Below are positions 13,519 through 51,341 of a stretch of DNA of 64,000 nt, one piece after another (position 1 is the first letter of the stretch; each line of letters opens with the position of its first letter). A program made the translations under genes and the position numbers. The notes beneath the pieces are model-generated. The model was not told where the DNA came from. It ran no database searches and saw only the letters and a program-made list of their open reading frames with translations. The stretch lies in NCBI GenBank assembly GCA_964016885.1, contig OZ024741.1:1860001-1924000 (forward strand), written 5' to 3'. This DNA comes from Eledone cirrhosa (taxonomy: Eukaryota).

Positions 13519-13603
<85 letters not shown>

Positions 13604-13714
13604 GTTTGAATATGTATAATAAAGCCAAAACAATGCAGGTATGGACATAGAATAAAGAATGCAAATGCAAAAGATATTGTTGACAATTAGTCTTTTACCT
13701 TAGATTTATTTATA

Positions 13715-13754
13715 TGTCCTAAATTTTCGAGATAATATCTCTTCTTCAGAGGGA
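13715..13754 (-). ncRNA. Hammerhead-like motif in pseudo-LTR (mirror of 17291-17330)
   Basis: CTGAAGA-a-gagat-att-atctc-GAAA-attt; stem I is imperfect. Confidence 0.5.
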
Positions 13755-14165
13755 AGTAAAGCTGTCAAACCAGTGTTCTAAATAGCTTGCCAAGTCATGC
13801 TGACAGGAAATGGTATAGAGTATCTGTTCTATCTCTAATGTCAAAGAGTTAAGATTAGGTGGATAAAGAGTAGTCTCCCTTTAAGAGGGGTTTGTTTTTG
13901 TTTTGGGTTTTTTTTTTATACATGCCTGTTTAAGTGTGTGGGAGAATGCATGAAGGTGTAAGTATGTGAGTGTGTGTGTGTCTGGGTGTAAGAAGATATG
14001 TCTATATGTAAATGTGGGGGATAGATGTTATCTCGTGTTAGAACTGGTTTTGTGTGTGTATGTGTGAGAGAGAATAAGTGGAGGTGTAAGCGTGTGTGTG
14101 TATGTGTGCGTGCGTATGTGTGTGTGTGTGTGTGTGTGGGTGTAAATATGGGGCTAGAAGCTCTA

Positions 14166-16560
14166 TCAAGTTATAAATTGGGTGTTGAGTTCTAGTCTAT
14201 TATTGATTGGTGGTTGTGTTTTGTCTATAATTAGTGCTTCCTTAATTCTAAGATTGCCGAGGTTTCTTTTCTTAGTTTCTATCCTAACTGTTATGGTTTT
14301 GTCGGTGTTTTTGCATTTAACTAGGTGTTTCTTAAATGAGGAAGCGTTAGTATTGAGGTGTTCTTTTATTCTTATGTGGAGTGGTCTGGTGGTTCTACCT
14401 ACGTAGAAGTTGTTGCATTTGTCACACTCTAGTCTGTATACGACGTAATCCTGGTGGCATAGGTCTGTGTCGTTGATGGGGCAGTTGGCTAGTCTGCAGC
14501 AGTTGTCATATCTGGTGGAGTGTCTTTTGGTTAGCTGACCGCGTAGAGAAGGACCTGAGTGGGCCAGTTGGATATCTAGTTCCTCTCGTCTGATAGCTCT
14601 GCGGATGGCTGTTGTTGTTTCTTCACTGAAGTGTGGGAGCTTCAGGAAGCAAGTGTTAGTGCCTCGGGTGTGGTGTCCTCTGTTCTTTCTGGCACGGTTT
14701 GTGGTGGATGTCGTGTATCCGCTCAGTTTGAGTACTTCCAGGAAATGTGTGGTGTGTGTGTCTCGGTCTCTAGCGTCGGTGCATTTGTTCCGGATACGTG
14801 CCAGTTCGTTCCTTATGTATCTGAACTTGGCACCGAGTGGGAGGGCCGATCTGAAATGTACGAACAGGTCCCTGCTGGCGGCTTTTTTATAGAAGCAGGT
14901 GTGGATGTTACCTTCCTCTGTTACCCTGAGTTGGAAGTCCAGTAGGGATAGGGATCCGCGGTCATCGGGGTGTTCCATGCTGAACTTTATACTGGCGTCC
15001 ATGCTGGAGAATGTTGTGTATATTTTATCTGCCTCCTCACGGGATGATGTAAGGATGAGTATGTCATCTACATATCGGGTGAAGAAGGTATGGGAATGGC
15101 AGGTGTTGAGGGCTCGGCATTCTAGCTGGTTCATGTAGGTGATGGCCAGCAGGCCCGATAGGCTGGATCCCATGGGTAATCCTGTTGTCTGTCTCTATGT
15201 GCGGTGGTGGAAGGTGAAGTACGTGTTGTCTACTGTGAAGGACAAAAGCTGGTGTATGTCCGTCGGGTGGAGGCCGTAGCAGTGGATGTCCTCTGCGACC
15301 ACGCAGTCCGTCAATAAATCGACAGCTGGATGAGCGGAGACTGTAGTGTAGAGGGAGACAACGTCGAGGCTAAAGGCGTATCTATTTAGTTTAAGTTATT
15401 CTGGCTGGAGTTGGTGTAGTCTACGTATAACTTCGTCGGAGCTACTGACATGCCCGGGAAAGGTGGAGAGTAGAGGCTTGAGGACCTGGGAGAGGAGCCA
15501 GGAAATTTTGTATAGGGGTCCTTCTATGCTAGAGACGATGGGTCTTATTTGTGTCTTAGTACTATTTTTGTGGGTCTTGATGAGGTGGTAGAAAGTGGGC
15601 AGTCTGCTATTTCTAGTGGTGTAGTTGAGCTTAACTTTATTTGGGAGTTGTCTTCTCCTACAGATATCGAACCAGATGGAGTTGGTCTGTTTTTCGATCT
15701 GGGCTGCAGTCATGTCCGGGATCTCTGTGTATAATTCATTGTCGCTTAGGTGTTCAAAGGCTAGGTTGTTGTATGTGGCTTGAGAGATGACGCAAAACTC
15801 TTTACCTTTGTCGGATGGTAAGTATATAAGTTCCCTATTCCGTAGGTTCTTCAGGGCGAGTTGTTGTGTCCTGGAGAGGTTTGGGGCTATCTTCTTCTGT
15901 TTCTGTTAGATGTTAAATATGGAATGTTTTAGCCTCGAGAGTTTTTTTTCAAGCTCGCGGTTGGCAGGCGGTGGACAGAGTGGGCGATCCAGTTGGTATA
16001 TCGGGAATCTGGGTTAGATAGATTCCGTGGTGTTGTTGCCGAGAGTCGATATCCATTTTAGTTGGTAGGCAGCCCGACAGAAATTCGTTTCTATGTCGAG
16101 CCATAATTTGTCGTCCAGTCTCTGTTTCAATATGAACTTGGGACCCAGGGAGAGGAGGTCTAATTCCTCTAGGGAGAGGGATCCTGTCAAGTCTGTGACG
16201 AGGTGTTTTGCGTCAGGTGTGTTGTTGGTCGGGTCGCCGCTAGGTTCGGTGTTGGTACCGTCTTGTTCGCCTCTGTTGGTGTTTAGAGTTGGGATGTTGT
16301 TGAGACAGTTGGCCGTCCTGAGTTTGAGAAATGTTTGCGTTAGACGTATTTTCTCGTAGTCTCGGCGATGGTGGTATGACCTGTCTATAGCGGCGGAGAT
16401 GACTTTGGACAGAGGTTCTGGGGTTTCAGCGAGTTGTGGTACAAGGCTGGAAATAGTCCGTATGTGTTGTTGTAGCGTGCGGTGTAGGTGTTGTATGAGT
16501 TTTCTTAGGCAGAATTTTTGTATGTAACTAAGTGATCGTTTGAGGCCTGGTGATTTGAAG
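14166..16560 (-). pseudogene. PLE reverse transcriptase / GIY-YIG endonuclease, disrupted
   Basis: LLSLGPKF, PTFYHLIKTHK...IRPIVS, MGSSLSGLLA, RYVDD, LSLLDF, VVYRLECDKCNNFYVGRT, spread over several ORFs. Confidence 0.9.
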
Positions 16561-17290
16561 CTAGCCAACTGCCCCATCAACGACACAGACCTATGCCACC
16601 AGGCTTACGTCGTATACAGACTAGAGTGTGACAAATGCAACAACTTCTACGTAGGTAGAACCACCAGACCACTCCACATAAGAATAAAAGAACACCTCAA
16701 TACTAACGCTTCCTCATTTAAGAAACACCTAGTTAAATGCAAAAACACCGACAAAACCATAACAGTTAGGATAGAAACTAAGGAAAGAAACCTCGGCAAT
16801 CTTAGAATTAAGGAAGCACTAATTATAGACAAAACACAACCACCAATCAATAATAGACTAGAACTCAACACCCAATTTATAACTTGATAGAGCTTCTAGC
16901 CCCATATTTACACCCCCACACACACACGCACGTACGCACACACACACACATACATACGCTTATACCTCCACTTATTCTCTCTCACACATACACACACAAA
17001 ACCAGTTCTAACACGAGATAACATCTATCCCCACATTTACGTATAGACATATCTTCTCACACTCACACACACACACTCACATACTTACACCTTCATGCAT
17101 TCTCCCACACACTTAAACAGGCATGTATAAAAAACCCCAAAAAACAAAAACAAACTCCTCTTAAAGGGAGACTACTCTTTATCCACCTAATCTTAACTCT
17201 TTGACATTAGAGATAGAACAGATACTCTATACCATTTCCTGTCAGCATGACTTGGCAAGCTATTTAGAACACTGGTTTGACAGCTTTACT

Positions 17291-17330
17291 TCCCTCTGAA
17301 GAAGAGATATTATCTCGAAAATTTAGGACA
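17291..17330 (+). ncRNA. Hammerhead-like motif in inverted pseudo-LTR
   Basis: tccct-CTGAAGA-a-gagat-att-atctc-GAAA-attt-aggaca; stem I is imperfect. Confidence 0.5.
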
Positions 17331-17486
17331 TTTAAATAAATCTAAGGTAAAAGACTAATTGTCAACAATATCTTTTGCATTTGCATTCTTTATTCTATGT
17401 CCATACCTGCATTGTTTTGGCTTTATTATACATATACAAACGTTTATACCTCATTACACAATGCTTCAATTGAACTATCACCTCCT

Positions 17487-17592
<106 letters not shown>

Positions 17593-17750: not shown

Positions 17751-17977
17751 ATTTCTGAATTGAGGGCGGGGCGGGGGGGGGGGGGGGCAATTTAGTTGTA
17801 GTGATTATTAGTTTAGCTGTTATTAGTAAATATCAACCAAGATATAGGATAATTCGATATGGGATAAAACATAACATTTATATAAATTATAGCGTATATA
17901 GAAATAGATGTGTTTTGGTAGTTAGGGGAGAAAATATGATTATTGGTCCTCCAGTTCCACTGCCCCTGATATATATA

Positions 17978-18165
17978 CTGTTGAAGTTAGCTCAGTACCT
18001 CTGAAATATGTATAATAAAATATACTTGATCACAAGAAGTTTTATTTTTGTTAATATTTTGAATTAATATTAATAACTCCGGAAAACCATTACAGTTGAG
18101 TTCTTCCAATCTATTGTAAAACTCATTCTTTGATCTATTCATTGAACATTGTTTAACCTTTAAAT
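17978..18165 (+). mobile_element. Truncated copy of HHR element family A
   Basis: Reverse-complement homology to 26051-26233; starts inside stem II, so the CTGATGA core is absent; ends in (TA)n. Confidence 0.7.
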
Positions 18166-18985: not shown

Positions 18986-19064
<79 letters not shown>

Positions 19065-19171
19065 CAGAGTAATTCGTGGTAGAGGGATGGTCAGTAGGAA
19101 TGTGTTTGTAAGTGTGTGGGGGATATTTTAACATGTTAAAAGATATTTTTCAGCTCTTGTCTTATACGGAG

Positions 19172-19270
<99 letters not shown>

Positions 19271-22200
19271 TCTTTGTATGTTAATGTACGCGTGTGTATG
19301 TGTGTGTGTATATATGTTTGTGTGTGTGTGTGTGTGTGAGAATGTGTGTGTGTGTGTGTGTATTTTTGTGATACTGGTAAAATGGTGTACATTATTCGAT
19401 ATTTTCAGTAAAAACGATTCTCTCAATAGAACATCAAAAACCTTAATAATAAAAGGTGTGAAATGATATATAGTATTGGCATAATACCAAGGTATGTGTG
19501 AGTGTCCAGATTGTACGTACTTGCCGTATTGGAATACTTGTGTACAAATATATATGTGCCCATCAGTGTGCAATGCATGTGTGCGTTTATGTATGTGTGT
19601 GTGTCGGCACGTTTATATCTATAGACATCAAAAGGTATGCAAATTTGTGTATATTTGTGTTGCACCATAGAACGTGTGTGTCTACGTATGTCATTGTGTT
19701 TATATGTGGATAGAGATGTATGCTGATGTAGGTATGTATGTTGACGTGTGTATGTTGTGGGTTCGTCTTAGGGAGAAGTGTTTAGACGGGGTCCGTATTT
19801 GTTAATAAAGTAAGATTCCTTGCTGATGCGCTGGGTGTGGGTGGCATTATCTTTAAATTTTTAGAGGGGAAAGATTCTGAAGTTGGGATGATTTTGGGCG
19901 GCACAGGTATCAATGTGTTCACTCAGTGGTATTTTCCTGTATTCCCGTATTTTAATTTGGGATTTATGGACAGTCATGCGAGAGTAATCAAAATTATCAA
20001 TCTAACTAGTGCAGAACCAACACCCAACCTTATCAACTTACACTCCAAAGGTCTTAAATTCACACCGACACCACTACGTCCTAACTACTATGAAATGAAG
20101 GAAGACATCACAAACTTCTGTAGAAAGTTACGACTCAGTGAAGAACTATTCGACCAGTACAATCAGGATGAATCATTAGCCAGAAATAGAAGCAATTACA
20201 CCCCATCAAAAGGTAGAAATAAAATCCTGGACGAATTTTGTGAACACATCACAAGCTTCCCTTACCAACACTTGCACAGACAAAAACACAAGCCAAACCT
20301 CAACAAGAAAGAATGGGAAGAATTAAATAGATTAAAAACCGACAGAACCATTACAATTAAAGAGGCTGATGAAGGGGGTACAGTAGTCCTAATGGAGACA
20401 GAATTCTATATCAACTTAGCGCTCTCCACTTTGGAAAACGAAACATACTACGAAAAGGCTGAACACTACAATCAACAGAAAATTATGAGAAACCTAAAAA
20501 CTCTGATCAACCAATACAAAGAAGGACTCACTAACAAGGAATTCAGCTTCATCACAGTCTTCAAAAGTAAATCCAGCCTTTTCTACGGTATCCCTAAAGT
20601 ACATAAAAGCGAATTAATAAGTAAGGCATGCAAGGAAGCCACAGACATAGTCATCAATGTCCCCTCACCCAATGATCTCAAATTAAGACCTATAATAGCA
20701 GGCCCCGCTTGCTAAACCCACCGCCTTAGCAACTTCATTGATACCCTTCTCAAGCCTTTTCTCAAACACATCAAAAGCTATATAAGGGACGACCTAGATA
20801 TGCTCAATCACCTCCCTAATATGCCCCTTTCTGAACAAACCCTACTAGTGACGTTCGATGTAGTCAACCTATACTCCAACATCCCCCACAACCTAGGAAT
20901 AGAAGCTATCCAATTCTGGCTGGATAATTACCACAATGAACTCCCACAACGCATCAAAAAAGAATTCGTGATAGAGGGACTCAAATTTATCTTGGAGAAC
21001 AATTACTTCGTTTTCAATAACAAACCCTACAGGCAGAAGTCTGGGACCGCTATGGGAACGAAAACAGCCCCCACTTATGCCAACCTAGTCATGGGATACC
21101 TGGAAATCACCCTTTACACTAAAGTCCTAAACAAATTTGGAAACACTCTCCACTTACACATAGAAAGGAACTGGAAGCGATATCTAGATGACTGCTTCAT
21201 CCTTTGGCACGAAAACATTGAGAAACTTAAAGAATTTCACACCCTTATAAATGGGCTCAACACGAATATTAACTTCACGGTGGAATACAGCCATCAACAA
21301 CTCCCCTTCCTCGACATCCTCATTAAGATCCATAACAAAAAAATAGAAACAGACATATACTACAAGCCCACAGACGCCAAGCAATATCTTCCTTTCAACT
21401 CTTGCCACCCTAGACACGTTAAAATTAATATTCCCTACAACTTAGCCAAGAGAATCTGTACTATAGTCTCCAATAAAAACACCTACTACTTACGGCTACA
21501 AGAACTAAAGGACACACTCATAGGCAGGGACTACCCTGCATCACTAATTGACAATAGAATCCAACGTGCCCTAAAACTCAGCACCCAGGACCTTAGACAC
21601 CCTAAAGTAAATCAACCGAAACTAAAAGCTCTTCCATACATCTCCACACACAACCCCTCAACAATGAGGCCTTTGACACCATCCTCCAGAACATCCCTGT
21701 GTTGAAAAAGGACCATAGAATGAACCAAATCCTACGAACACACGATATCATAAAGACCAAAAGACAATCTAAGTCAATGAAAAACATCCTAACACATGCC
21801 AAAGTACTGCCAACCACAACAACGAAACCCACAGTAAAACAATGCGATAAACCCAACTGTGGCATATGCATCAACCTAATAGAGGGTTCGGAATTCTATT
21901 TCAAAGAAGGACAACGTTTTATAGTAAAACACAATTTCACATGCGCATCGGAAAATCTAATATATGTATTAACTTGCTCAGGATGTCGAGAACAATACAT
22001 AGGCCAGACCAAAAACAGCCTCCGCCAACGCATGACTGTCCATACATCCCAAATTAAAATACAGGAATACAGGAAAATACCACTGAGTGAACACATTGAT
22101 ACCTGTGCCGCCCAAAATCATCCCAACTTCAGAATCTTTCCCCTCTAAAAATTTAAAGATAATGCCACCCACACCCAGCGCATCAGCAAGGAATCTTACT

Positions 22201-23416
22201 TTATTAACAAATACGGACCCCGTCTAAACACTTCTCCCTAAGACGAACCCACAACATACACACGTCAACATACATACCTACATCAGCATACATCTCTATC
22301 CACATATAAACACAATGACATACGTAGACACACATGTTCTATGGTGCAACACAAATATACACAAATTTGCATACCTTTTGATGTCTATAGATATAAACGT
22401 GCCGACACATACACATACATAAACGCACACATGCATTGCACACTGATGGGCACATATATATTTGTACACAAGTATTCCAATACGGCAAGTACGTACAATC
22501 TGGACACTCACACATACCTTGGTATTATGCCAATACTATATATCATTTCACACCTTTTATTATTAAGGTTTTTGATGTTCTATTGAGAGAATCGTTTTTA
22601 CTGAAAATATCGAATAATGTACACCATTTTACCAGTATCACAAAAATACACACACACACATTCTCACACACACACACACAAACATATATATATACACATA
22701 CACACACATACACACGCGTACATTAACATACAAAGAGACATATACACACACACACAGACTTCTCCGTATAAGACAAGAGCTGAAAAATATCTTTTAACAT
22801 GTTAAAATATCCCCCACACACTTACAGACACATTCCTACTGACTATCCCTCTACCACGAATTACTCTGCTACGCACACACATACACACACATACACACGT
22901 GTCTTAATAGGCAATTGAACTGTCAACAGGCTGCGGTTCGCACACACATCCCTGCTGACCATTATCACAACAACGAACCTCTTCACTACTACTACACACA
23001 CACACAGACATATTTGTTTTGAAAGACTTATTTTTCAGTGACTTCTCAATCAGCCGACACAAACCTACATTTGGCGCAAAATCAATTTTTAACATTCACA
23101 TGACCTCTACCGACCAATCAAAATTGTTTTGAGCACAATAATTCTTGCAACACGAATTGGCGCGAAACTTATTTTAATACTTCTGGAGCCACTTTTTTCA
23201 CATAAAAACAGGTAGAATTTCCAAAACTAATCAGATTAGAGCAAACATCACGGACGCTCTATCTCAAAATTATTTTTGAAAAGCATTAGAAATGCGCAAC
23301 CGGTAAAACTTAAAACCAAAACTGAATACTAACCAATACTATTACTAATTTTCCCTTATTCCTAATTAAACTATATTTCACTGTGAACAATTTGTCAGCA
23401 TTTTCTTTTACGTTTA

Positions 23417-23504: not shown

Positions 23505-24321
23505 TAGTATTAGTTATACTATTTATGGTTATGTAAACACAAAACCTTAAGCAATTGTAAGTATTTTACACACACCCTAAATAGTGGTAGGCAGTAATGT
23601 ATTACTACCTTATTACCAGTAAGTTAAGTAGCTCAATGTAAAAACATCAGATGATTTACAGAGCAGTTATATGAAATATAAGAATCAAAGAACTGTTCAA
23701 AACATTATTGTGCTTACAGCTGTTTCCTCCAAACCGAGGTTTGGATTCTTCGGAGCAATTTATTAATGCATGGACAGTTATATGACCTCCTTGACATCCC
23801 TGCGCTGTGCATCTCCAATACTTATAACACTTTTAATGCTTGCACTATCTTTAATGCTTATAATATTTCCCCACACACAGACTATATCAATCATATAAAG
23901 ACTTTGCCACCAGATCTACCAACCTAACACTCTTATTTACCTACCTAAGTGCCTCTACCACACATATCTCTCTGCCACACTATATAAACAAGACGCACAT
24001 GCGTGCCACACATATAACATTTGCACTATATAACCACTTATCTTCATGTTGTACTTTAACCTATATCTTTGATTTTTGATTGTACCTATTAATATAAATG
24101 TAATCTCGAAGTGTGTACTGCCACTCTAAATTCTGTAATGAATGTTGACCCACAATGTTTGAATATGTATCAATGTTTGAATATGTATTGGTATGTCTCT
24201 CGGCTGAAAAGGAGGTCATATAACTGTCCATGCATTAATAAATTGCTCCGAAGAATCCAAACCTCGGTTTGGAGGAAACAGCTGTAAGCACAATAATGTT
24301 TTGAACAGTTCTTTGATTCTT

Positions 24322-24330
<9 letters not shown>
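23505..24330. mobile_element. ORF-less fold-back element with an HHR in each arm
   Basis: 23668-23792 is the reverse complement of 24209-24333; (TA)n on both sides. Confidence 0.8.
24244..24290 (+). ncRNA. Hammerhead ribozyme with CCGAAGA core variant (mirror copy at 23711-23757, minus)
   Basis: tgct-CCGAAGA-a-tccaaacc-tc-ggtttgga-g-GAAAC-agct-GTA-agca; palindromic stem III acagctgt. Confidence 0.75.
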
Positions 24331-24380
<50 letters not shown>

Positions 24381-25064: not shown

Positions 25065-25146
<82 letters not shown>

Positions 25147-25188
25147 TGTGTGTGTATACATATGTGTGTGTATACATATATATATATT

Positions 25189-25272
<84 letters not shown>

Positions 25273-25282
25273 TACATATATA

Positions 25283-26030
25283 TGAAAGACGTAAAATAGG
25301 AAAATTTTAAAAATTAAAAATTAACTTACTTACTAAAATTTTCACTCCAACTAATTAGTTTCTGTAAGGGAATAAATATAGTTACGTAACGCAACTATAG
25401 AGAAGTCCTTACGTCATCGGGGAGTCTATTCTCAGCTACGTTTCCAGGCAATGCGCGGACACTAGGAACCCATATAAAAATAATAATTCAGTGGATGGAA
25501 TTATTTGTTGAGCAAAACTTGCCAAAATTTACTGCTATGGTTGATGGTAGTAGTTAGGCTATTGTCATAATACCACCCCACTCCTCACTGATTAACCTCA
25601 GTGTCACGTGATTAATTCTTTAGAATTTGCCACTGACCAAGTAGGCAGTGAATTTTTTCAGTGCCCTGGAATTTTTGTCCCCGCTAGCTTTATTCCATCC
25701 ACTGAATTATTATTTTTATATGGGTTCCTAGTGTCCGCGCATTGCTTGGGAACTTAGCTGAGAATAGACTCCCTGATGACGTAAGGACTTCTCTATAGTT
25801 GCGTTACGTAACTATATTTTTTCCCTTACAGAAACTAATTAGTTGAAGTGAAAATTTTAGTAAGTAAGTTAATTTTAAATTTTTAAAATTTTCTTATTTT
25901 ACGTCTTTCATATAATTGTTCTGCATCCCCCTGCATAGAACCACAAAGGTACTAAGACATAACATATATATTTGCTAGCATGGGTATACATCTGTATACA
26001 TACGTTGGTAGATATACTAATTCTCTATAC
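25283..26030 (+). mobile_element. Retrozyme-like family B: one permuted ~530-nt monomer plus a 5' inverted segment
   Basis: 25283-25501 is the reverse complement of 25692-25910; 25501-26030 is homologous to 50238-50953 in permuted order; flanked by (TA)n. Confidence 0.8.
25768..25849 (+). ncRNA. Hammerhead ribozyme with extended stem II (mirror copy at 25344-25425, minus)
   Basis: actcc-CTGATGA-c-gtaagg...tatagtt/aactata...ccttac-a-GAAAC-taatta-GTT-g(a/g)agt. Confidence 0.8.
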
Positions 26031-26050
26031 ATACATATATATATATATAT

Positions 26051-26467
26051 TTAAAAGTTAAACAAGGTCAATGAATACATCAAAGAATGAGTTTTATAAT
26101 AGAATGGAAGCAGTCAACAGAAAAGGTTTTCCAGAGTTATTAATATTAATTCAAAATATTAACAAATAGATATTCTTGTGATCTATTATATTTTATTATA
26201 CATATTTCAGAGGTACTGAGTTAAGTTCAACAGTACGTCCTCATCAGATAAAATGAGATAATGCATGACATACCCTGACATAGTAGATGGTTAAGATGGT
26301 TACTACCATGACTGAATCTTAACCATCTACTATGTCAGGGTATGTCATGCATCATCTTATTTTATCTGATGAAGACGTACTGTTGAACTTAACTCAGTAC
26401 CACTGAAATATGTATAATAAAATATAATAGATCACAAGAATATCTATTTTGTTAATATTTTGAATTA

Positions 26468-26472
<5 letters not shown>
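26051..26472. mobile_element. Fold-back HHR element, family A
   Basis: Arms 26143-26297 and 26316-26472 with an 18-nt loop; flanked by (TA)n. Confidence 0.85.
26358..26424 (+). ncRNA. Hammerhead ribozyme, family A (mirror copy at 26190-26254, minus)
   Basis: tattttat-CTGATGA-[gtactg...cagtac hairpin]-GAAA-tatgt-ATA-ataaaata. Confidence 0.75.
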
Positions 26473-26503
<31 letters not shown>

Positions 26504-31605: not shown

Positions 31606-31653
31606 CCTTCAAAATATTAATAAAGGAAGACGTTCACATAATCAAAATATATG

Positions 31654-31715
31654 TTTTATTATATATATTTCGGAGGTACTGTGCTGTTTTTTCAGTACGT
31701 CCTCATCAGATAAAA
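31654..31715 (-). ncRNA. Hammerhead ribozyme, family A
   Basis: ttttat-CTGATGA-ggac-gtactg..cagtac-ctcc-GAAA-tatat-ATA-ataaaa. Confidence 0.75.
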
Positions 31716-31962
31716 TACATAAATTGATGTACGGCATACCTCAACTGTCTTGATGGTTTAATTTCAGTCTTGGCAGTGATTTATTACATCAAAACTCTAT
31801 GTTTATATACCACAAGAAGGAATAACATGACAAACTAAATGTGATGAAGAGAGGGATGTGAAGCGAGATATAAGTATCAAGAGGGGGTGGGTATGAGAAA
31901 ATATAGAAGAAATAAATAAACACATAAGTACATAAATGTTAAAATATATAAATATTCATGTT

Positions 31963-33759: not shown

Positions 33760-36700
33760 TCCTTGAGGCTCAGTCATTGATGTTAGTTAACTGGAAAGTT
33801 TGTTGGAATGAATATCAAGCCACTACCTAGCCTCAGATATTCAGGACGTATCGGAGGGTTCTTGCTGTTCCCAGCAAGCATGCCTTTTGAAGCGTTCCAA
33901 AAAGCGTGAAGGGGCCGATTTTCTTTAACCATCCCTGGAAACTTTTGGAGATAGTCCCCAGTGCGCCTATGACAATCGGGATCACTTTGACTTCATGGCA
34001 GTTCCAAATCCTTTTTACCTCCCACTTTAAGTCCTGGTATCGGTTAATTTTCTCCCTCTCCTTCTCTTGCACTCTCGTGTCGAATGAGCAGGCCACATCC
34101 ACAATCAGGCACGATCTTTTTTCTTTGTCCACAACCACCAGGTCAGGTCTATTGTGTTCCAGTTTCTTGTCCGTCTGTATCCTAAAATCCCACAGCACCT
34201 TCACCTGATCGTTCTCTATCACCGCCTCTGGCTTATGCTCATACCACTTCTCAGAATGTGGTAAATTGTTTACTTTGCACAGGTGCCAGTGGATCACCCT
34301 GCCCATCACATCATGTCTCCAGCCCTTATAGTGGGTCTGGACTAGGTGTTTACACTCGGATACAATGTGAGCCACAGTCTCCTCTCTCTCTCCACAGATC
34401 TTGCACAGTAGGCTAGCCTCCTCCTTGTAAATATGGTGTTTCAACCACTTCGTTTTGAGGGCCTGTTCCTGCGCAGCCATTAACATTCCTTCTGTAGCCT
34501 TTTTAAGGTCTCCTCTTCTCAACCAGTTCCATGTCTGTGGATCTCTAAATTCAGTTTTCTCAAAGAAGATACTATGAAGGGATTTTCCCTGAAGGCTGCT
34601 CTTTCTCCTTGATGTTATTTCCTCCTTGGACATCCCCTGGCCTATTGCCCCCTCCTTCAGTACAGTTCTGAGCATTGGCTCCTTACTATCAGTCACGTAT
34701 TTGTGTAGGTTTGTTTTTCTCCATCTGAACACAGTCCTCTATGCTGATAAGACCTCTTCCACCCTCAGATCTCCTTAAGTAGAGACTATCGACATCACTC
34801 CTCTTGTGGAACATGTTGTAGATAGTCAATAGCTTCCTAGTCTTCCTATCCATTTCTTTTTGTTCAGCAACATTCCATCTCAGAATTCCCGCACTGTACC
34901 TAATAATAGACACAGCTCGGGAATTTACTGCGCTTATGGCATTTCTGCTGTTTAGATGTGACTTCAATACGCTCCTTACTCTCCGAATGTATTCAGTTCT
35001 TAACAATTCCTTCATTTTTTTGTTCTTTATGCCATCAGCCTCCAGAACGCCCAAATACTTGTATCCTTCCTCAGAGTCAATTTCCTTTATCATCTCACCT
35101 GTTGGTATCTGGATTCCGTTACTTCTGCTCAACCTACCCCTCCTCATCACAATGACTCCACACTTACTAATACCAAACTGCATACATATATCACTGCTGA
35201 AAATACGGACAGTGTCAACAAGCACATCCAACTCCTTCTCACTCTTCCCGAAGAGCTTAAGATCGTCCATGAAGAGGAGGTGATTGATGGTAAGCCCTCC
35301 CTTTCCCAACCTGTATCCTGCTCTCACTTTTCGCAGTACACTGGTCAGGGGCATCAGGGCAAGGACAAACAACAGAGGGGACAGGCTATCTCCCTGGAAG
35401 ATACCTCTCTTGATCTTCACGCTTCCCAAGGATTCTCCAGTTGATGTTAACTCTGTTTCCCAGGACCTCATACTTTTGCCCAACAACTGTCTGATGTTAT
35501 CTGCCACCCTGAAGATCTCCAGGCTTTTGGTGATCCAAGAATGAGGCACCATGTCAAATGCCTTTCTGTAGTCTATCCATCCCATGGCAGATCAGTGTGT
35601 CTCCTCCTGCAATTCCCCATTACCATCTTATCAATAAGTAACTGGTCCTTTGTACCACATGACTTCTTTCGGCATCCTTTCTGTTCGTCCGGTAACAAGT
35701 TGTTTGTGTGGAGGTGATGGTAGATTTCCTCAGACACAATGCTCGTCAACAGTTTCCACATTACGGACAGACATGTGATAGGTCTATAGTTGGTAACATC
35801 ATTACCCTTGATTCGGTCTTTCATTATCAGAACTGTGGTACCTTTTGTCAACCACTCTGGTACCTCACCTGACATCAAGCAGTCAGTTTCGGGTGGAGGG
35901 ATGTTATATTTTTAATCCAATACCCCTGCACACCATCTGGGCCTGGTGATTTCCAGTTGGTTAGTTTTTTGGCCTGCCCCTTAAGAGTTTCAACTGTGAT
36001 ACTCAAATCAGTTTGTTGGTGTGCCTGTTCACCGATCTCCTTCTGTACTGTCTCAATCCACACTGCCTGGTCATTATGTCTAACATCCTGCTCCCATATT
36101 CCTCTCCAGAATGTTTTAGTTTGTTCCGCCTCAGGGATCAAGTCGTTGCCTCTTTCTTTCCCCTCAAGCTGTCCAAACAGCATCTTCTGGTTGTTGTCGA
36201 ACATGCGGTTCTGTTTATACTGACTGACTCTGTTCTCGTATCGCCTGATTTTTGCACTCTTTGCTACAATGCGTTGCTTCAGTTCCTCTATGATAATATT
36301 TAGCTTTTTCCTCCTAGTTTTGTACTTTATTTCCAGTCTATTTTTAGTGCCTATGTTTTTTAGTGTCCCATTCAGTAGTGACTCAAGCTTTCCTATGTCA
36401 TTTCTCATTTCCTTGATTTGACCACTCAGTCGTTTCTTCCACCAAGGCTCTGCTCTTTTTTGTCTGTTGTTTCCTCTCGCTTTTATACCAAGTAGTTTCC
36501 TCACCGTATTTGCTGTTGCTTTGAGAATATTGTTGCACTGGTGAAGGCTCCTCGCCTCAAGGTATGGGATGACTTTGTTTACCTTAGCTGTTGTTTCTTT
36601 TAACTTTTTCCTGTCTACAAATCTTAGGTTCATAGGTCTCCCACTATCATTGTTCAATTAATCTACCACTAAATTTAGGATGTCAACCGAATCTTGTCCT

Positions 36701-36869
36701 AGCCCGTCAGCATTCATCTCCTCAGTGGCAGTATCTCTGTTCCATGTATTATTTATCTCAGTATTCAGATCATTGTCTGCTTCGGGTGGTTCCTCCGTTC
36801 TCTCGACCTCTTCACCTTCATTTCCCACTGGCTCGTTTGTCTGGCATACTACACCCTCCATCTCCAAGC
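33760..36869 (-). mobile_element. R4/Dong LINE family 1, copy 1, 5'-truncated, inserted in (TAA)n
   Basis: [39 protein letters not shown] restriction-like endonuclease; frameshifted; (TTA)n at both ends. Confidence 0.92.
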
Positions 36870-36919
<50 letters not shown>

Positions 36920-36920
<1 letters not shown>

Positions 36921-39900
36921 AATTGCATTTATCTTGCTTTATGTTCATACGAGTTATCACCATGTCACAACCAGTGACCTCAAGAGACAACAAGGTCCGC
37001 CATGTTCAAGAAAGAACATACATACTCACACATGCATCTTTAGTGTTTAGACTTGTGATGTACTTATATTGACAGAATCTTCCTTAGTATATGGGCAGTT
37101 CCCATTAGTACTATCTTTTGTATTTCTCCTATACGCGGGTTTCCTGGGATTTGCGATAAGTAATCATTAGACCCCTTAGGTATCATTCCCAGAGCGCCTA
37201 CAACCACTGGTATTGTTTTAGTTCTCAATTTCCACATTTTTCCAATTTCTATCTCCAGGTCCTTATACTTGCTCAATTTTTCAAATGTTTTTATAGATAC
37301 ATTCTTGTCTATTGGAACAGACATATCAATTAGCAGGCATACCCTCTTTTTAAAGTCCTTCAATATTATATCAGGTCTATTTGCATCTATTTTTCGGTCT
37401 GTTTGGATGCTAAAGTTCCACAAGATTGAGATGTGATCTTTTTCAAGTATGGGAGGTGGTTGATGCTCCCACCAATTCTTTTGATGGGGCAGGTCAAAAT
37501 GCTTACACATTATCCAATGTATGTATTGTGCAGCTCTGTCATGCCTGTTTATGTATTCGGTTGGAGCTATAGGACTGCACATTGAAATTATATGGTCAAT
37601 GGTCTCTGGTTGTTTTTTGCATACACGGCATAATGGGCTGCATCCATTTTTTATTATGTTGGCTTGGTAATTTTTTGTTGGCAGACACTGATCTTGTGCT
37701 GATATAATCAGTCCTTCAGTCTCCGATTTCAGTCCAGAGGATGCCAACCACTGATGGGTTAAAGTTTTGTCAACATCAGGATTGTTAGTTCGCTCTGGGT
37801 ATTTTCCATACAGAGGCTTTTCTTGCCATTTCTTAGCCAGTTTCTGTAGCAGTTCTTTCTTTGCAGTTACTTTTACCTGCTTTGCTTTTTCTGTGTTTTC
37901 CATTTCAGCAGTAAATGGGACTTCTGAAATTTGTAGTCCATTACTGTATCTTTGTGCATCTTTTGTAATGGAATATGATCTTTTGATGCTTTCGTGTTTC
38001 AAAACGAGTTTGATCATCCAATCATGTGATTCTCTTAGATATGTAGATAATCCAATTGTTGCAGTTTTCAACGCAATGTCTAACTGGATTAACCTACGTC
38101 CTCCTTCTTTCCTAGGGAGATATATTCTATCTATATCTGCCTTAGGGTGATGCATTCTGTGCATGGTTAAGAATTTTCGAATTTTTGTATCGAGCCTACG
38201 GATCTCTGTGCTTGACCAGTTGATGACATTGTAACTGTAGGTTACTACTGGTATGGCAAGCGTGTTTATGGCATCGATCCTATTCCTTGCATTCAATTCC
38301 GTTCTTAAGATTGCTCTTACTCTGCGGTAACATTCCTTCCTTATCCTTTCCCTCATTGTCGAGTGCTTGATTCCGTCTCCTTCACAAACACCTAGATATT
38401 TGTAAGTTTTTTCTTGATCAAGTTCTCTCATCACGTTCCCCCGATCAAGATTAATGTCTGAACTCTTCAGCAGCTTTCCTCTGGTGAACGTTGCTTTGGC
38501 GCATTTATCTAGTCCAAACTCCATTTTAATGTCATCACTGAACTGCTTCACAGTGGATAATAGCCCTTGCAATTGTTCATCATTTTTTGCAAATAGTTTC
38601 AGGTCATCCATGTAGAACAGGTGATTAATGGTTTTGTCATAGACTTTACATCCATGTTTTGTTTCATTGAGCATTTTACTTAATGGTATAAGTGCGATGC
38701 AGAATAAAAGCGGTGATAAAAAGTCACCCTGAAAAATTCCACAATTAATATTAACTTCTCCAGCTTCCAGTGATTTTGTTTCACTATTCAAAAGGAGTGT
38801 CGTTTTCCATGTCTTCATACTGAATGACAAAAACCTCCTGACAACGGGGGATACTTTGAAAATCTCTAAACATTTTTCAATCCAACTGTGTGGCAAACTA
38901 TCAAATGCTTTTTTATAATCTATCCAAGCAATCGATAGATTTTTGTGTCTATTATGACAATCTTCCAGTATCATTTTGTTAACCAGAAGCTGATCCTTAC
39001 AACCATATGAGCCTCGTTTACACCCTTTCTGCTCAATGGGAAATAGGTCATTTGTTATCAGGTGGTCATATGTGTATTCAGTTAGGACTGATGTTAAAAT
39101 TTTATACATTGTGGTCAAGCAAGTTATCGGTCTGTAATTTTTGGGATTGTTTGTCTCATCATTCTTCGGAAGCAGGAATGTGATGCCGTTAACTAGCCAT
39201 GAAGGTATCTTTTCTGGCTCCTTAACTATTTCATTGTAAAGTTGGGCTAACAGCTCATGAGACTCTGTGAAGGCATTTATCCAAAAGTTTTGTATTTGTC
39301 TTTTCCTGGGGATTTCCATTTGCTGGTTTTTCTTAGAGCCAAGCGCAACTGTTCAACTGTTATATTTTCCCATGTTTGTTCCTCAAGGTGAGCTGTATCT
39401 TTCATTTGTCTGTCTATCCCTGGGGCATGTATGTTATGAACTTTTTCTTCGGCCCAGATCTTTTCCCAGAATTCTTGCACTTCCTCCTTGGGTGGTATTG
39501 ATTTAGCAGTTATTGTTGACTTACCAATTTTTCTGTAGAAGTTTCTTTGGTTGTTTTTGAACATATTATTGTCCTTATAGAATCTAGATCGTTTTTCAAA
39601 GCGCCTTATACGAGCAGCTTTGGCCGACACTTTTTGCTTGATTATTTCTATCAGCATGTCTATGTCACATGTTGATTTTATACTGTACTTTTTTTTGAAT
39701 TTTCTAAGTTTAGTTTGTTTAACATCTTCACCTACTTTATAGTTTGTTAAAATTTCTATGTCAGATCGGAGAAGGTTTATTTGGCGATTGATGTTCTCTT
39801 GCCAAGTAGATTTCTTGTGGGAATTCCTTTGTTTTTTCATCTTCACTCCACATAAGTGAGTGGTGACTTTAGCCGATGCATAATAGAGATGATTTAGATC

Positions 39901-39997
39901 AGTAATGTTTAGTTTGTTTGTGATGATAATGTTTTTGAGAATTATGTTAGTCTTGTGTATTATCTTTTGGTTCTGTTTGGGGTTCTGGATCTTAGGG

Positions 39998-39998
<1 letters not shown>
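36920..39998 (-). mobile_element. R4/Dong LINE family 2, 5'-truncated, inserted in (TAA)n
   Basis: RT, CCHC and RLE motifs; (TTA)n at both ends. Confidence 0.92.
37064..39319 (-). CDS. Dong-type RT, zinc knuckle and restriction-like endonuclease (751 aa open; frameshift upstream near 39300)
   Basis: [35 protein letters not shown]...HIISMC, RHD, RPDI. Confidence 0.85.
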   Translation of the reverse strand: MEIPRKRQIQNFWINAFTESHELLAQLYNEIVKEPEKIPSWLVNGITFLLPKNDETNNPKNYRPITCLTTMYKILTSVLTEYTYDHLITNDLFPIEQKGCKRGSYGCKDQLLVNKMILEDCHNRHKNLSIAWIDYKKAFDSLPHSWIEKCLEIFKVSPVVRRFLSFSMKTWKTTLLLNSETKSLEAGEVNINCGIFQGDFLSPLLFCIALIPLSKMLNETKHGCKVYDKTINHLFYMDDLKLFAKNDEQLQGLLSTVKQFSDDIKMEFGLDKCAKATFTRGKLLKSSDINLDRGNVMRELDQEKTYKYLGVCEGDGIKHSTMRERIRKECYRRVRAILRTELNARNRIDAINTLAIPVVTYSYNVINWSSTEIRRLDTKIRKFLTMHRMHHPKADIDRIYLPRKEGGRRLIQLDIALKTATIGLSTYLRESHDWMIKLVLKHESIKRSYSITKDAQRYSNGLQISEVPFTAEMENTEKAKQVKVTAKKELLQKLAKKWQEKPLYGKYPERTNNPDVDKTLTHQWLASSGLKSETEGLIISAQDQCLPTKNYQANIIKNGCSPLCRVCKKQPETIDHIISMCSPIAPTEYINRHDRAAQYIHWIMCKHFDLPHQKNWWEHQPPPILEKDHISILWNFSIQTDRKIDANRPDIILKDFKKRVCLLIDMSVPIDKNVSIKTFEKLSKYKDLEIEIGKMWKLRTKTIPVVVGALGMIPKGSNDYLSQIPGNPRIGEIQKIVLMGTAHILRKILSI

Positions 39999-40054
<56 letters not shown>

Positions 40055-40065
40055 GTTATTGTTAT

Positions 40066-42066
40066 TCCTTGAATCTCAGTCATTGATGTTGGTTAACTGG
40101 AAAGTCCGTTGGATTGAATATCAAGCCACTACCTGCAGCCTCAGATATTCAGGACGTATCGGAGGGTTCTTGCTGTTCCAAGCAAGCATGCCTTTTGAAG
40201 CGTTCCAAAAAGCGTGAAGGGGCCGATTTTCTTTAACCATCCCTGGAAACTTTTGGAGATAGTCCCCAGTGCGCCTATGACAATCGGGATCACTTTGACT
40301 TCATGGCAGTTCCAAATCCTTTTCACCTCCCACTTTAGGTCCTGGTATCGGTTAATTTTCTCCCTCTCCTTCTCTTGCACTCTCGTGTCGAACGGGCAGG
40401 CCACATCCACAATCAGGCACGATCTTTTTTCTTTGTCCACAACCACCAGGTCAGGTCTATTGTGTTCCAGTTTTTTGTCCGTCTGTATCCTAAAATCCCA
40501 CAGCACCTTCACCTGATTGTTCTCCATCACCGCCTCTGGCCTATGCTCATACCATTTCTCAGAATGTGGTAAATTGTTTACTTTGCACAGGTGCCAGTGG
40601 ATCACCCTGCCCATCACATCGTGTCTCCAGCCCTTATAGTGGGTCTGGGCTAGGTGTTTACACTCGGACACAATGTGAGCCACAGTCTCCTCTCTCTCTC
40701 CACAGATCCTGCACAGTGGGCTAGCCTCCTCCTTGTAGATATGGTGCTTCAACCACTTCGTTTTGAGAGCCTGCTCCTGCGTAGCCATTAGCATTCCTTC
40801 TGTAGCCTTTTTGAGGTCTCCTCTTCTCAACCAGTTCCATGTCTGTGGATCTCTAAATTCAGTTTTCTCAAAGAAGGTACTATGAAGGGATTTTCCCTTA
40901 AGGCTGCTCTTCCTCCTTGATGTTATTTCCTCCTTGGACATCCCCTGGCCTACTGTCCCCTCCTTCAGTACAGTTCTGAGCATTGGCTCCTTACTATAGG
41001 TCACGTATTTGTATAGGTTGTTTTTCTCCATCTGAACACAGTCCTCTATGCTGATAAGACCTCTTCCACCCTCAGATCTCCTTAGGTAGAGTCTATCGAC
41101 ATCACTCCTCTTGTGGAACATGTTGTAGATAGTCAATAACTTCCTAGTCTTCCTATCCATTTCTTTTTGTTCAGCAACATTCCATCTCAGAATTCCCGCA
41201 CTGTACCTAATAATAGACACAGCTCGGGAATTTACTGCGCTTATGGCATTTCTGCTGTTCAGCTGTGACTTCAATACGCTCCTTACTCTCCGAATGTATT
41301 CAGTTCTTAACAATTCCTTCATTTTTTTGTTCTTTATGCCATCAGCCCCCAGAACGCCCAAATACTTGTATCCTTCCTCAGAGTCAATTTCCTTTATCAT
41401 CTCACCTGTTGGTATCTGGATCCCGTTACTTCTGCTCAACCTGCCCCTCTTCATCACAATGACTCCACATTTACCAATACCAAACTGCATACATATATCA
41501 CTGCTGAAAATACGGACAGTGTCAGCAAGCACATCCAACTCCTTCTCACTTTTCCCGAAGAGCTTAAGGTCGTCCATGAAGAGGAGGTGATTGATGGTAA
41601 GCTCTCCCCTTCCCAACTTGTATCCTGCTCTCACTTTTCGCAGCATAATGGTCAAGGGCATCAGGGCAAGGACAAACAACAGAGGGGACAGGCTATCTCC
41701 CTGGAAGATACCTCTCTTGATCTTCACGCTTCCCAAGGATACTCCAGTTGATGTCAACTCTGTCTCCCAGGACCCCATACTCCTGCCTAGCAACTGTCTG
41801 ATGTTATCTGCCACCCTGAAGATCTCCAGGCTTTTGGTGATCCAGGAATGAGGCACCATGTCAAATGCCTTTCTGTAGTCTATCCATCCCATGGCAAGAT
41901 CAGTGTGTCTCCTCCTGCAATTCCCCATTACCATCTTATCAATAAGTAACTGGTCCTTTGTACCACGTGACTTCTTTCGGCATCCTTTCTGTTCGTCCGG
42001 TAACAAGTTGTTTGTGTGGAGGTGGTGGTAGATTTCCTCAGACACAATGCTCGTCAACAGTTTCCA

Positions 42067-42068
<2 letters not shown>
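40066..42068 (-). mobile_element. R4/Dong LINE family 1, copy 2, 5'-truncated, inserted in (TAA)n
   Basis: Highly similar to 33760-35760; (TTA)n at both ends. Confidence 0.92.

Positions 42069-42069
<1 letters not shown>
40141..42069 (-). CDS. Dong-type RT-RLE, uninterrupted 642-aa C-terminal part
   Basis: [31 protein letters not shown]...HIVSEC, RHD, RPDL. Confidence 0.85.
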
Positions 42070-42136
<67 letters not shown>

Positions 42137-42435
42137 GTTATTATCGCTAATTATTTGCTGGTTTGAATTAAGAATTTTGCTATTAATTTTTGCAATATTT
42201 TGAGAAATATTCATAGTTGTTGAATAAGAAAGTTTAACTGTGTGTCTGTTGAAGATAGAGTAATACTTATGTGATCTAGGGAAACATTTATCTAAGGCTT
42301 TAAAACATAAATGTGCTAAAGGTGTTTTAATAGCTAAAGACGCTGGTGGGGCATACCAAATAATAAATCTAGTTCTAATTTTTTTCCTCGTATCATTCTC
42401 CAAATTGTTGTTTTTATTTGTATTTTTAGCATCAG

Positions 42436-46570: not shown

Positions 46571-47337
46571 AATTGTTATTATCATGAGTGGTTCCTTAAT
46601 GTGAGCATTGCGTGGCTTAAGAATGAAATTATTAATAACCGTCTCCACTCCAGGCACAAGGCCAGCAATCACCCAGTGCATTACAATAATATAATATACT
46701 TTTTGCTGAAGTTGCCTGTTATTGTTGTTGGCTATGTCGGTGGTGGTGCCGGGGCTTTTTATATTGTTGGTGAGGAAGGGGTGAGCCAGCAGTCCCATAG
46801 TTGTTGATGTTGACGTTTGGCCGGTGGCCAGATCACTAAGTCAATCTATTTATATCTTTTGCTAGCCTCTCCCTTGTCTAGTGATACCGCCACCTTCCCC
46901 TTTCTTCCCCTTTCTCTCTCAAGTTAACAGGGGAATAGTGGTGGTAGCAATGAAGGAGTGGTGGCGGCGGTGATGGGATAGTGGTAGCAATGATGGATGG
47001 GGTGATGGCGGCGGTGGCATTGTCATTACTGAGTTTTGTGATGTAGTATCTATGAGTTTGTGTTCGTATGTTTAATATATATTGTGTTGACATATTCCCG
47101 TAAAATTTGGATTAAACATTTTGTTAAAACTTGAGACAATAATAATAGTAATTATTATTATGATGCTGGGATTGATGGTGGTGGTGGTGAAATTGCAGAA
47201 TGTGCTCAATACTAGTGCCGGCAGTATTAAATATTAGAAGTCTTAATATTTAGTGGGCGAGAGAGTTAGCAGAGCGTAAGCACGTGGAAAAGTAAGAAAT
47301 CGGAGAACAGACCGTTAATACATGTTTATTTAAAACA

Positions 47338-47377
47338 GCACCTAAGTACGTTTCGCCCGGATGGGCTTCTCAAGGGC
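47338..47377 (-). ncRNA. Degenerate hammerhead-like motif in pseudo-LTR
   Basis: gccc-TTGAGAA-gccc-atcc-gggc-GAAAC-gtac-ttaggtgc; stem II is clean, core 1 deviates. Confidence 0.45.
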
Positions 47378-47934
47378 ATAAATAGCTAAAAGTGTTCCTT
47401 ACATGGCCCGGAAAGTGTTTTGGGGGGTAAGTTCACGTCAGAGTTCATTCTTCGCAAAAAAAGAGTGTTTTGATTTTGCAGTAGGTCAAGGGGGGTAACT
47501 CTGGCCAGTTAGGGCAGTCTTTCCCGGACAAATATTTTATCCGTTACAAGATGTGGTTACAACCTTACCATTGTCGATACGCACAGGGTCAGGTAATCAA
47601 CGCCTATTTTGAGACGCTTGTTTTTCTGCACCTGCCCGCCTGGGTCATTTGAAGCTGGGTCTGGGATGAATGGTTAGCTTCCGGATGTTTTTTGCAGCGC
47701 CTGCCCGCCGGGGTGTTAAAGCTTGTTGCAGGGAGGCCCGGTATACGGTTTCACTCCTCATCCTTATCCCATCTGAAGAAGGATATTTTTAAGCGATGTG
47801 TACAGCTTATCGTCGTTTCAGCTCTGTTGTTGATGAGCTCGTGGGGTGCAGTTATGATGTGGTAGAGCTCCATGAGGCAAAGATCGCACTTCCTCTTGAA
47901 GTTGTACGGTGCAACCCTGCCGACAATATCCCAG

Positions 47935-50166: not shown

Positions 50167-50264
50167 AGGTACCTAGGTGCTGTTTTAAATAAACATGTAT
50201 TAACGGTCTGTTCTCCGTCTTTTTACTTTTCCACGTATATGCCTGGAAACTTACATGAAAATAG

Positions 50265-50346
50265 ACTTTCCTGACGACGGAATGCTTTTCTATATATTCT
50301 TCGGAAAATATATTTACTCCATTCCAGAAACTAATTAGTTGGAAGT
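50265..50346 (+). ncRNA. Hammerhead ribozyme, family B, copy 1
   Basis: actttc-CTGACGA-c-ggaatg...cattcc-a-GAAAC-taatta-GTT-ggaagt. Confidence 0.82.
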
Positions 50347-50806
50347 GATATTTTAGTAAGTAAGTCAATTTTATAATTTTTTTATAATTTTATAATTTTC
50401 TTATCTTACGTCTCTCATATTATTGATCTGCAACCCCATGCATTGAACCACAATGTTACTAAGACAAAACCTATATATTTGCTAGCATTGATATGCATCT
50501 GTATGTATATAAATGTTACTAGATATTAATTCTTTATAATTATCTCCAATTCATTTGTCGAGCAATATTGGCCATGACTGCTGCTATAGTAGTAGGCAGG
50601 CCGCTGTCTTATTAACAACTCGCTTTCCACTGATTGACCTCGATGTCACGTGATTGATTCTTTTTGAATTTGCCACAGACGTAGAGGCAGTGATTTTCTC
50701 AATGGCTAGGATTTCAGTCCACGCTTCGCTATTTCCTTTCCACTGAATTATTTTTTTAATAAGTTTCCAGAGTCCTCGCTATGCCTGGAAACTTACATGA
50801 AAATAG

Positions 50807-50879
50807 ACTTTCCTGACGACGGAATGCTTTTTTTATATATTCTTATTTACTCCATTCCAGAAACTAATTAGTTGGAAGT
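50807..50879 (+). ncRNA. Hammerhead ribozyme, family B, copy 2
   Basis: Same motif with a shortened stem II loop; both cores are intact. Confidence 0.82.
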
Positions 50880-50943
50880 GATATTTTAGTAAGTAAGTCA
50901 ATTTTATAATTTTTTTATAATTTTATAATTTTCTTATCTTACG

Positions 50944-50988
<45 letters not shown>

Positions 50989-51341
50989 ATTTTTTGTTCT
51001 TATTTATTTATTTAGTTATTCCTGCTTCCTAACTACTGCTCGTATCTGTGTATACATTTTTGAGTGCATATATATCTGTGTATATGTATGTGTATGTATT
51101 TATGTTCCTGTAGACGCAAATACGCTTATGTGAGAAAGTATACGTCTACGTACTTTTTAGTATATGCGCGGAGTTGAGTGTGTGTATGCTTACGCTCTGG
51201 ATATTTATATTTTTATATATATATTTTTTATTTTTTTCCCCTATTTCCTTTTCGCCCGTTTTATTTTTCAGCCTCACTTTCATATTTCCTAAATTTTGTT
51301 TTCAAATCCATATTTAATAAATACACCATGTTTGTTCTTTA

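Follow-up and report, generated by a model that had tools for sequence, protein, structure and literature searches.

An inverted-arm copy of an abundant ~540-nt hammerhead repeat in Eledone cirrhosa, probably a non-LTR retrozyme inserted into (TA)n by PLE machinery

We analyzed a stretch of 64,000 nucleotides of Eledone cirrhosa DNA (contig OZ024741.1, positions 1,860,001 to 1,924,000), hereafter the window, and describe a repeated element at 25283-26029 within it. The locus has (TA)n at both outer ends. On the left this is a microsatellite at 25104-25282, recognized from a TRF row (25104-25283) and from the sequence, and on the right it is a tract at 26030-26049 that doubles as the end of a neighboring element (26051-26471). 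Between these target parts lie two arms, joined head to head. The inverted, 5′-truncated arm occupies 25283-25501 on the minus strand, and the non-coding forward arm occupies 25499-26029 on the plus strand; in the alignment they overlap by a 3-nt microhomology at 25499-25501. A sequence-only reading of this DNA had described a 220-bp inverted 5′ segment, and 25279-25501 is indeed the reverse complement of 25692-25914 (223 nt, 96.4% identical). A putative type I hammerhead fold is present in the forward arm at 25768-25849 (+), and a motif scan located a second one in the inverted arm, with its core at 25420, one core change and an intact stem I.

A copy of a second subfamily was found by alignment and motif scan at 50238-50953 (+). 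It comprises ~1.34 units of 533 nt; its repeated parts are identical except for one substitution and two indels, in the region of the stem II loop. Two complete hammerheads occur in it, at 50265-50346 and 50807-50879 (motifs at 50271 and 50813, 542 nt apart), which gives the head-to-tail repetition with at least two complete hammerhead units that is expected of retrozymes. The sequence-only reading had also held that 25501-26030 is collinear with a monomer, 50341-50873, across the monomer junction. This is what we observe: 25499-26029 scores 395 against the doubled monomer, versus 202 against the single monomer and at most 36 in 100 dinucleotide shuffles, and 416 of the 503 aligned columns are identical. 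The alignment begins at the equivalent of 50548 and finishes at that of 50538, crossing the junction without rearrangement. The boundary of the monomer 50341-50873 is arbitrary, the natural locus being 50238-50953.

The unit is an abundant repeat. Four of the 12 listed public runs were aligned to 25501-26030, and onto this 530-nt segment map 2696 contigs of one run (X1) and 45 contigs of a run with another organism label (X4). X1 may derive from the sample that gave the window. Small shares of the unit's words occur under five further organism labels, and runs of one of these were aligned. We did not rank termini by summed contig depth, which does not equal copy number. In X1 contigs and in three raw reads of run X11, position 26029 is joined to 25501 by 12 bridging letters, the last two of which equal 25499-25500, and loose ends of X4 show the same continuation from 26029 to 25501. 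By this junction in the reads, the unit is closed head to tail with a length of ~541 nt; the forward arm therefore amounts to one unit minus 10 nt, close to the single monomer in a different register that had been claimed for it. Long arrays of the unit were not seen.

The unit is non-coding, with longest stop-free frames of 53 and 64 aa in the two subfamilies. Seven tblastx rows elsewhere in the window (12-38 aa) are AT-rich or microsatellite matches by inspection. The RT and GIY-YIG reading frame that characterizes autonomous PLEs is absent from 25283-26029. The units have GC contents of 0.35 and 0.33 and are 61-63% paired, in agreement with the low GC (<50%) and self-pairing of retrozymes. 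Their length of 533-541 nt lies outside the 150-450 bp stated in PMC7229834 and inside the 51-972 bp stated in a preprint (10.64898/2026.07.22.740005). A first pattern scan of metagenomes, with a pattern that fitted the second subfamily only, gave 0 matches, and later metagenome scans gave 3 matches, without similarity beyond the pattern.

In the hammerhead of the forward arm, stem I consists of 25768-72 with 25845-49, the core lies at 25773-79, and stem II consists of 25781-86 with 25824-29. Stem III is palindromic (25834-43), cleavage is predicted after 25844, and an extra C/A occurs at the base of stem II. We assign the structure to type I from its anatomy (core, three stems and cleavage triplet), again as expected of a retrozyme unit. 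The ribozyme call rests on anatomy because Rfam gave no hammerhead match, neither for the window at the gathering threshold nor for 25250-26500 at E up to 5. The relaxed search on 25250-26500 returned hairpin-type matches only, mostly to a neighboring palindrome.

Across four aligned hammerhead copies, which represent two independent lineages, 51 of 52 stem cells are paired. All six pairs of stem II are kept in all four copies, and two of them are changed on both sides, which are two events and not a covariation statistic. The earlier observation that the base of stem II differs between loci yet stays paired thus holds. Only the forward copy has the lone stem I mismatch, at 25846; the base there pairs in the inverted arm, and this position is G in ~97% of the summed contig depth of X1. 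Both partner changes at 25785 and 25825 are present in reads, unphased. Hydra-clade PLE hammerheads carry an additional base behind the core, frequently together with a mismatch at the foot of stem II, and their palindromic stem III is short (File S2 of PMC8557442); the same features are described for PLE hammerheads generally (PMC4209133). As to activity, eight of nine predicted frog retrozymes did not cleave in vitro according to the preprint (10.64898/2026.07.22.740005).

Copies do not end at random. The position at which the second copy terminates into (TA)n, 50953, is matched by the inverted arm's outer end, and 21 X1 contigs exit the element at 25914 into (TA)n. This is the sole such exit among the six X1 rows listed for loose ends (24 of 524 rows are listed in total). 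One 3′ terminus is therefore common to the inverted arm, the 50238-50953 copy and 21 contigs, and a random circular permutation of copies, the strong form of the sequence-only reading, does not fit these ends. That reading had itself named termini fixed in all copies as an argument against it; one 3′ terminus is in fact shared, but the forward arm ends 120 nt further. By end comparison, this one-sided 3′ extension, or tail, spans 25910-26029 (+). The long end at 26029 is passed by 18 X1 contigs, and their consensus goes on into the next monomer (agreement 0.72). Our terminus evidence consists of contig loose ends only. Pile-ups of raw-read ends in X10 and X11 (at 25627, 25709, 25840, 25887, 25914 and 26022) were rejected as termini: all lie at most 4 nt from AATT sites, and 93-94% of the pile-up reads continue into unlike sequence, such that we treated them as library artifacts. 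Six opposite-strand joints in reads had little support and were also left out.

The arrangement of the locus resembles insertions of PLEs, which are described as carrying, at the 5′ end, an inverted copy with 5′ truncation and, at one end only, a tail of 30-40 bp (Craig et al. 2021, PMC8557442). Nearly all Hydra families target (TA)n (PMC8557442). The inverted 5′-truncated copy at the 5′ end, the (TA)n target and the fixed 3′ end are all found at 25283-26029. The inverted arm, one-sided tail and (TA)n flanks are hallmarks of PLE insertion, and we read the inverted segment and the overhang as the known PLE inverted arm and tail, although the extension is 120 nt here versus the 30-40 bp described. 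Among nine inverted-arm elements examined in the window, seven have one arm that runs straight into (TA)n and another that does so after a tail; six other elements thus share the layout of our locus. The seven tails measure 120, 97, 166, 44, 89, 60 and 70 nt, where that of 25283-26029 was counted as 25910-26029, the script having stopped at an internal TA run. The two elements left out of the count are 1793-2436, which is not (TA)n-bounded, and 19063-22872, which has (CA)n/(GT)n ends. Most of these tails, which range over 44-166 nt, are well above the length described for PLEs.

A PLE protein was reported to cleave and extend both strands, with two internal RNA start sites that define the tail, and its dominant substrate in vitro is unprocessed RNA (Frangieh et al. 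2024, PMC11167929). Another proposed route to inversion is self-priming on an antisense template (Arkhipova et al. 2013, PMC3846280). Because the inverted arm ends exactly at the common terminus, we favor a second priming event here, with self-priming as a possible, less favored route.

The monomers of both subfamilies fold strongly. As circles they give z scores of -5.7 and -5.2 (40 shuffles each), and the linear z is -4.5, compared with -2.8 to +1.7 for seven controls (the opposite strand and six other stretches). The joint fold of both subfamilies reaches -78.6, versus -33 ± 6 in 30 column shuffles, and the number of two-sided changes over the whole joint fold, 8, equals the shuffle maximum of 8. 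One helix of the joint fold, which the sequence-only reading does not mention, is predicted to pair 25579-25594 (+) with 25836-25851, on stem III, the cut site and stem I's 3′ strand; in the second copy, 50621-50636 is the equivalent of 25579-25594. This predicted anti-hammerhead strand is located ~255 nt from the cleavage site, about half-way round the unit, in both subfamilies.

The cognate duplexes have energies of -17.5 and -16.3 kcal/mol (0/500 shuffles each), values that are not blind, since the helix was chosen from the predicted fold and then tested, and that concern two lineages only. Swapping the partners between subfamilies gives -13.3 and -13.7 kcal/mol (68/500 and 30/500 shuffles). 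The -17.5 duplex uses the intact ribozyme sequence of the inverted arm; with the forward copy's own sequence, which has the substitution at 25846, the energy is -10.9 (79/500 shuffles) and the helix is absent from the best fold. The duplex of the second copy ranks 6 of 516 among all 17-mers, a shorter probe for this copy gives -10.6 only, and pair probabilities in its circular fold are 0.6-1.0 over most of the helix. Together, the strong monomer folds, the joint fold, the stem pairing and the anti-strand duplex support the earlier suggestion of selection on the RNA fold. The predicted strand could splint the ends for ligation or could block cleavage. If the helix is real, an intact junction would be kept from cleavage, and both ends of a cut monomer would be held together. 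PMC7229834 describes the hammerhead as unblocked in most animal retrozyme circles, with some mussel circles as exceptions, and as blocked in plant retrozymes and viroids.

The second copy lies next to a broken, 5′-truncated frame of a Hydra-type PLE at 48039-50274 (+), identified from its translation and protein relatives, with an RT and, at the C terminus, GIY-YIG. The translation has the CxCX5C linker, GIY-YIG, CxxC and CxH motifs, a combination typical of the Hydra clade (the linker, CxxC and CxH are given in section 11 of PMC8557442). Its top RT relatives have E values of 1e-74 with 47% identity, and one of them is a hypothetical protein of Argonauta hians. The endonuclease part is also matched by 38 of the 40 RT relatives of at least 600 aa. 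Another trait of the Hydra clade is DKT where other PLEs have DKG. Among these long relatives, [AS]DK[TS] is found in 32 of 40 and ADKG in 0 of 40; the frame in the window is truncated upstream of that site. Pfam reported no family for the three PLE frames of the window, and a word-based search with the endonuclease part found no match among longer proteins. Two further properties of this PLE are a 432-nt insert at 47354-47785, which splits its inverted arm and has no clear match to the PLE or its downstream region, and asparagine-rich insertions at 48866-49770, between RT and endonuclease. The latter recall those in rotifer Penelope elements (PMC3846280).

Our initial reading of the unit as the terminal repeat of this adjacent frame was demoted in view of the head-to-tail junction in reads and of the continuation of an inverted copy of the frame's end. 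This inverted copy (47282-47353) runs on not into the unit but into a 13-mer whose sole other occurrence in the window, at 51187, lies downstream of the retrozyme unit at 50238-50953. A separate type I hammerhead is situated at 51336-51445 (+), with its core at 51348, a 6-bp stem I and, once more, the extra C/A at stem II. A short (TA)n follows after ~45 nt, and this hammerhead is probably the native 3′ end of the PLE. Because of the continuation into the 51187 13-mer and this separate hammerhead with its (TA)n, the 50238-50953 copy is probably nested in the 3′ UTR of the Hydra-type PLE. No autonomous PLE partner with the unit's 3′ end turned up.

We consider it probable (roughly 0.7) that the locus is one insertion of a non-LTR retrozyme, likely made into (TA)n by the RT and endonuclease of a PLE, and likely from circular RNA. 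That the unit itself is a high-copy non-LTR retrozyme of ~540 nt moved by PLE machinery is very likely. Under this interpretation, tandem copies would be transcribed, and their hammerheads would release monomers, probably acting as dimers because stem III is palindromic. The strand half-way round the unit would pair across the cut site, hold the ends for ligation and keep the joined form uncut. A (TA)n-targeting PLE protein would then nick both strands and prime two cDNAs. The first would start at the common site and extend for 219-223 nt, and the second would be primed 120 nt further downstream, run through the intact ribozyme junction and stop 10 nt short of its own start, as on a circle. 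The two cDNA ends would finally be joined through the 3-nt microhomology.

The nature of the template is central to this interpretation. A cleaved linear monomer would start at 25845 and could not template the forward arm, so under this interpretation the junction was intact in the template. Likewise, a linear monomer arising from two cleavages is excluded because the template spanned both the cleavage site and the usual 3′ end. The template was therefore a circle or an uncleaved multimer. The earlier proposal of reverse transcription from a circular or multimeric RNA is upheld in that the template must have crossed an intact ribozyme junction, but the data fit a circle and an uncleaved linear multimer alike. 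Given a retrozyme inserted by a PLE, we regard the odds of a circle as about even and an uncleaved linear multimer as a strong contender at slightly less than even odds. The second copy exceeds one unit; a circle could yield it only with strand displacement, the alternative being a multimeric template. A narrower proposal, in which a co-evolving splint opposite the hammerhead aligns the cut ends and locks the circle, which the PLE enzyme copies from defined starts, strikes us as doubtful. If it is true, insertions of one unit minus 10 nt would be genomic footprints of one RT round on circular RNA.

The most serious rival retains the same element and PLE enzyme, but supposes that an uncleaved linear read-through of a tandem array was copied, that 5′ truncation fell near unit length by chance, and that the anti-strand only suppresses cleavage. 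We see this as a realistic possibility, albeit one we lean against. It accounts readily for the 1.34 units with near-identical repeats at 50238-50953 and for the variation in 5′ ends among the window's other inverted elements, and it agrees with the in vitro preference for unprocessed RNA (PMC11167929). Moreover, transcription would reach the anti-strand before the ribozyme, upstream of which it lies. What it explains less well is the strong folding of the whole monomer in both subfamilies and a 5′ end only 10 nt from the arm's own start, for which a rough estimate under uniform truncation over one to two units is 1-4%, with the reservation that this length was noticed after the fact in a single event. 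Randomly primed RT of a circle, which would yield copies in any register, is compatible with a forward arm whose register differs from that of the second copy and with the fact that recurrence of the 26029 end was not seen in X1 contigs. However, one terminus is used by the 21 contigs and by two of the window's three outer 3′ ends that abut (TA)n, which makes random priming very unlikely.

The locus might also be the truncated 3′ end (pLTR and tail) of an autonomous Hydra-type PLE like that at 48039-50274, with the unit as its terminal repeat. The second copy directly follows that frame, which reads into the hammerhead core, and the hammerhead has features listed for Hydra elements (File S2, PMC8557442). 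By contrast, the same non-coding 230 nt precede the hammerhead region in both loci, the unit closes head to tail without a frame, and the PLE appears to have its own end, given the 13-mer continuation of 47282-47353 and the hammerhead with (TA)n at 51348; we therefore judge this explanation unlikely. A DNA-level origin, as a recombination or deletion remnant of a satellite array with inversion by fold-back repair, would be in keeping with the 3-nt microhomology and with the ability of arrays of such units to expand at the DNA level (preprint 10.64898/2026.07.22.740005). Yet the terminus of the inverted arm is precisely the one that other copies use, each end is set in (TA)n, and six other elements in the window have the same layout; we find such an origin highly improbable.

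Non-LTR retrozymes as a family are already in print (Cervera and de la Pena 2020, PMC7229834; Li, Clavereau and Pollet 2026, bioRxiv 10.64898/2026.07.22.740005), as are, in the form of hypotheses, the circle model and PLE mobilization. PLE mobilization from a circle is the mechanism that these two sources propose for animal non-LTR retrozymes; it is argued there from co-occurrence and phylogeny, with the precise mechanism left open. Like animal non-LTR retrozymes, the present unit is non-coding, low in GC (<50%), tandem, strongly self-paired and high in copy number, has one type I hammerhead and coexists with PLEs. It also has an inverted arm, a one-sided tail and a fixed 3′ end, none of which is described for retrozyme copies in the available text of those sources. 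A further difference is that the ribozyme is here predicted to be blocked by a distant strand, which PMC7229834 relates, among animals, for some mussel circles only. Circular RNA has been demonstrated for published animal retrozymes and is proposed for the present family.

The locus also shares properties with insertions of Hydra-clade PLEs (PMC8557442; PMC3846280; PMC11167929), namely a head-to-head inverted 5′-truncated arm, a tail on one end and a (TA)n target, as well as a hammerhead close to the 3′ end whose stem II has an unpaired or mismatched base at its foot and whose stem III is short and palindromic. It differs from them in the lack of a frame in the unit, in a tail of 120 nt (44-166 nt over the seven elements) instead of 30-40 bp, and in a forward arm that is almost exactly one monomer. 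In Chlamydomonas, non-autonomous PLEs are already known (PMC8557442; PMC9977147). Chlamys elements such as MRC1 (PMC8557442) are comparable as non-autonomous PLE derivatives with pLTRs and head-to-tail insertions, but they are green algal, belong to a clade mostly without canonical hammerheads, and have a known similarity to an autonomous 3′ end, which was not found here. Our literature search found no cephalopod retrozyme and nothing on this family or on inverted-arm or tailed retrozyme copies, although supplements and subscription papers may hold cases.

A retrozyme copy with PLE-specific scars (inverted arm, one-sided tail, (TA)n target and fixed end) would be evidence of a different kind from co-occurrence and phylogeny. 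If PLEs do paste such units from RNA with an intact junction, the locus would provide direct genomic evidence for the spread of small RNA elements. How most metazoan circles escape re-cleavage is left open in PMC7229834, and the predicted strand across the cleavage site is a possible answer for animal retrozyme circles. As the family is very abundant, the genome-wide distribution of arm ends could separate a circular from a linear template.

Additional elements in the window merit description. The PLE at 13601-17488, which is among the seven tailed elements, has RT and C-terminal GIY-YIG frames on the minus strand, inverted arms that are ~97% alike over at least 690 nt, a 44-nt tail and (TA)n at both ends. 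The PLE at 19063-22872 has RT and GIY-YIG frames between inverted repeats, and its flanks consist of (CA)n/(GT)n instead of (TA)n. Hammerhead-like PLE ends of a second group, which have inverted arms and tails of 89-97 nt, occur at 26051-26471, 17976-18163, 31608-31777 and 52347-52817. The long end of this group is common to 26051 and 18163, and the right end of 25283-26029 is nested against 26051-26471 in the same (TA)n.

A recent insertion lies at 23508-24333; its arms show no difference over 120-125 nt, its tail measures 166 nt, and both arms contain a hammerhead-like motif with the core CCGAAGA. The surroundings of its short end resemble those of the retrozyme family; 0 of 200 letter shuffles were as good, although the sequence is AT-rich and the resemblance thus weak. 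A 640-nt imperfect palindrome at 1793-2436, with arms ~96% alike, is not (TA)n-bounded and had no hammerhead match in the scan; it is possibly a MITE. Finally, 33833-42150 contains what we take to be several stacked copies of another type of non-LTR retrotransposon, in which an RT is followed by a C-terminal nuclease-like part, with (ATT)n tracts between the copies.
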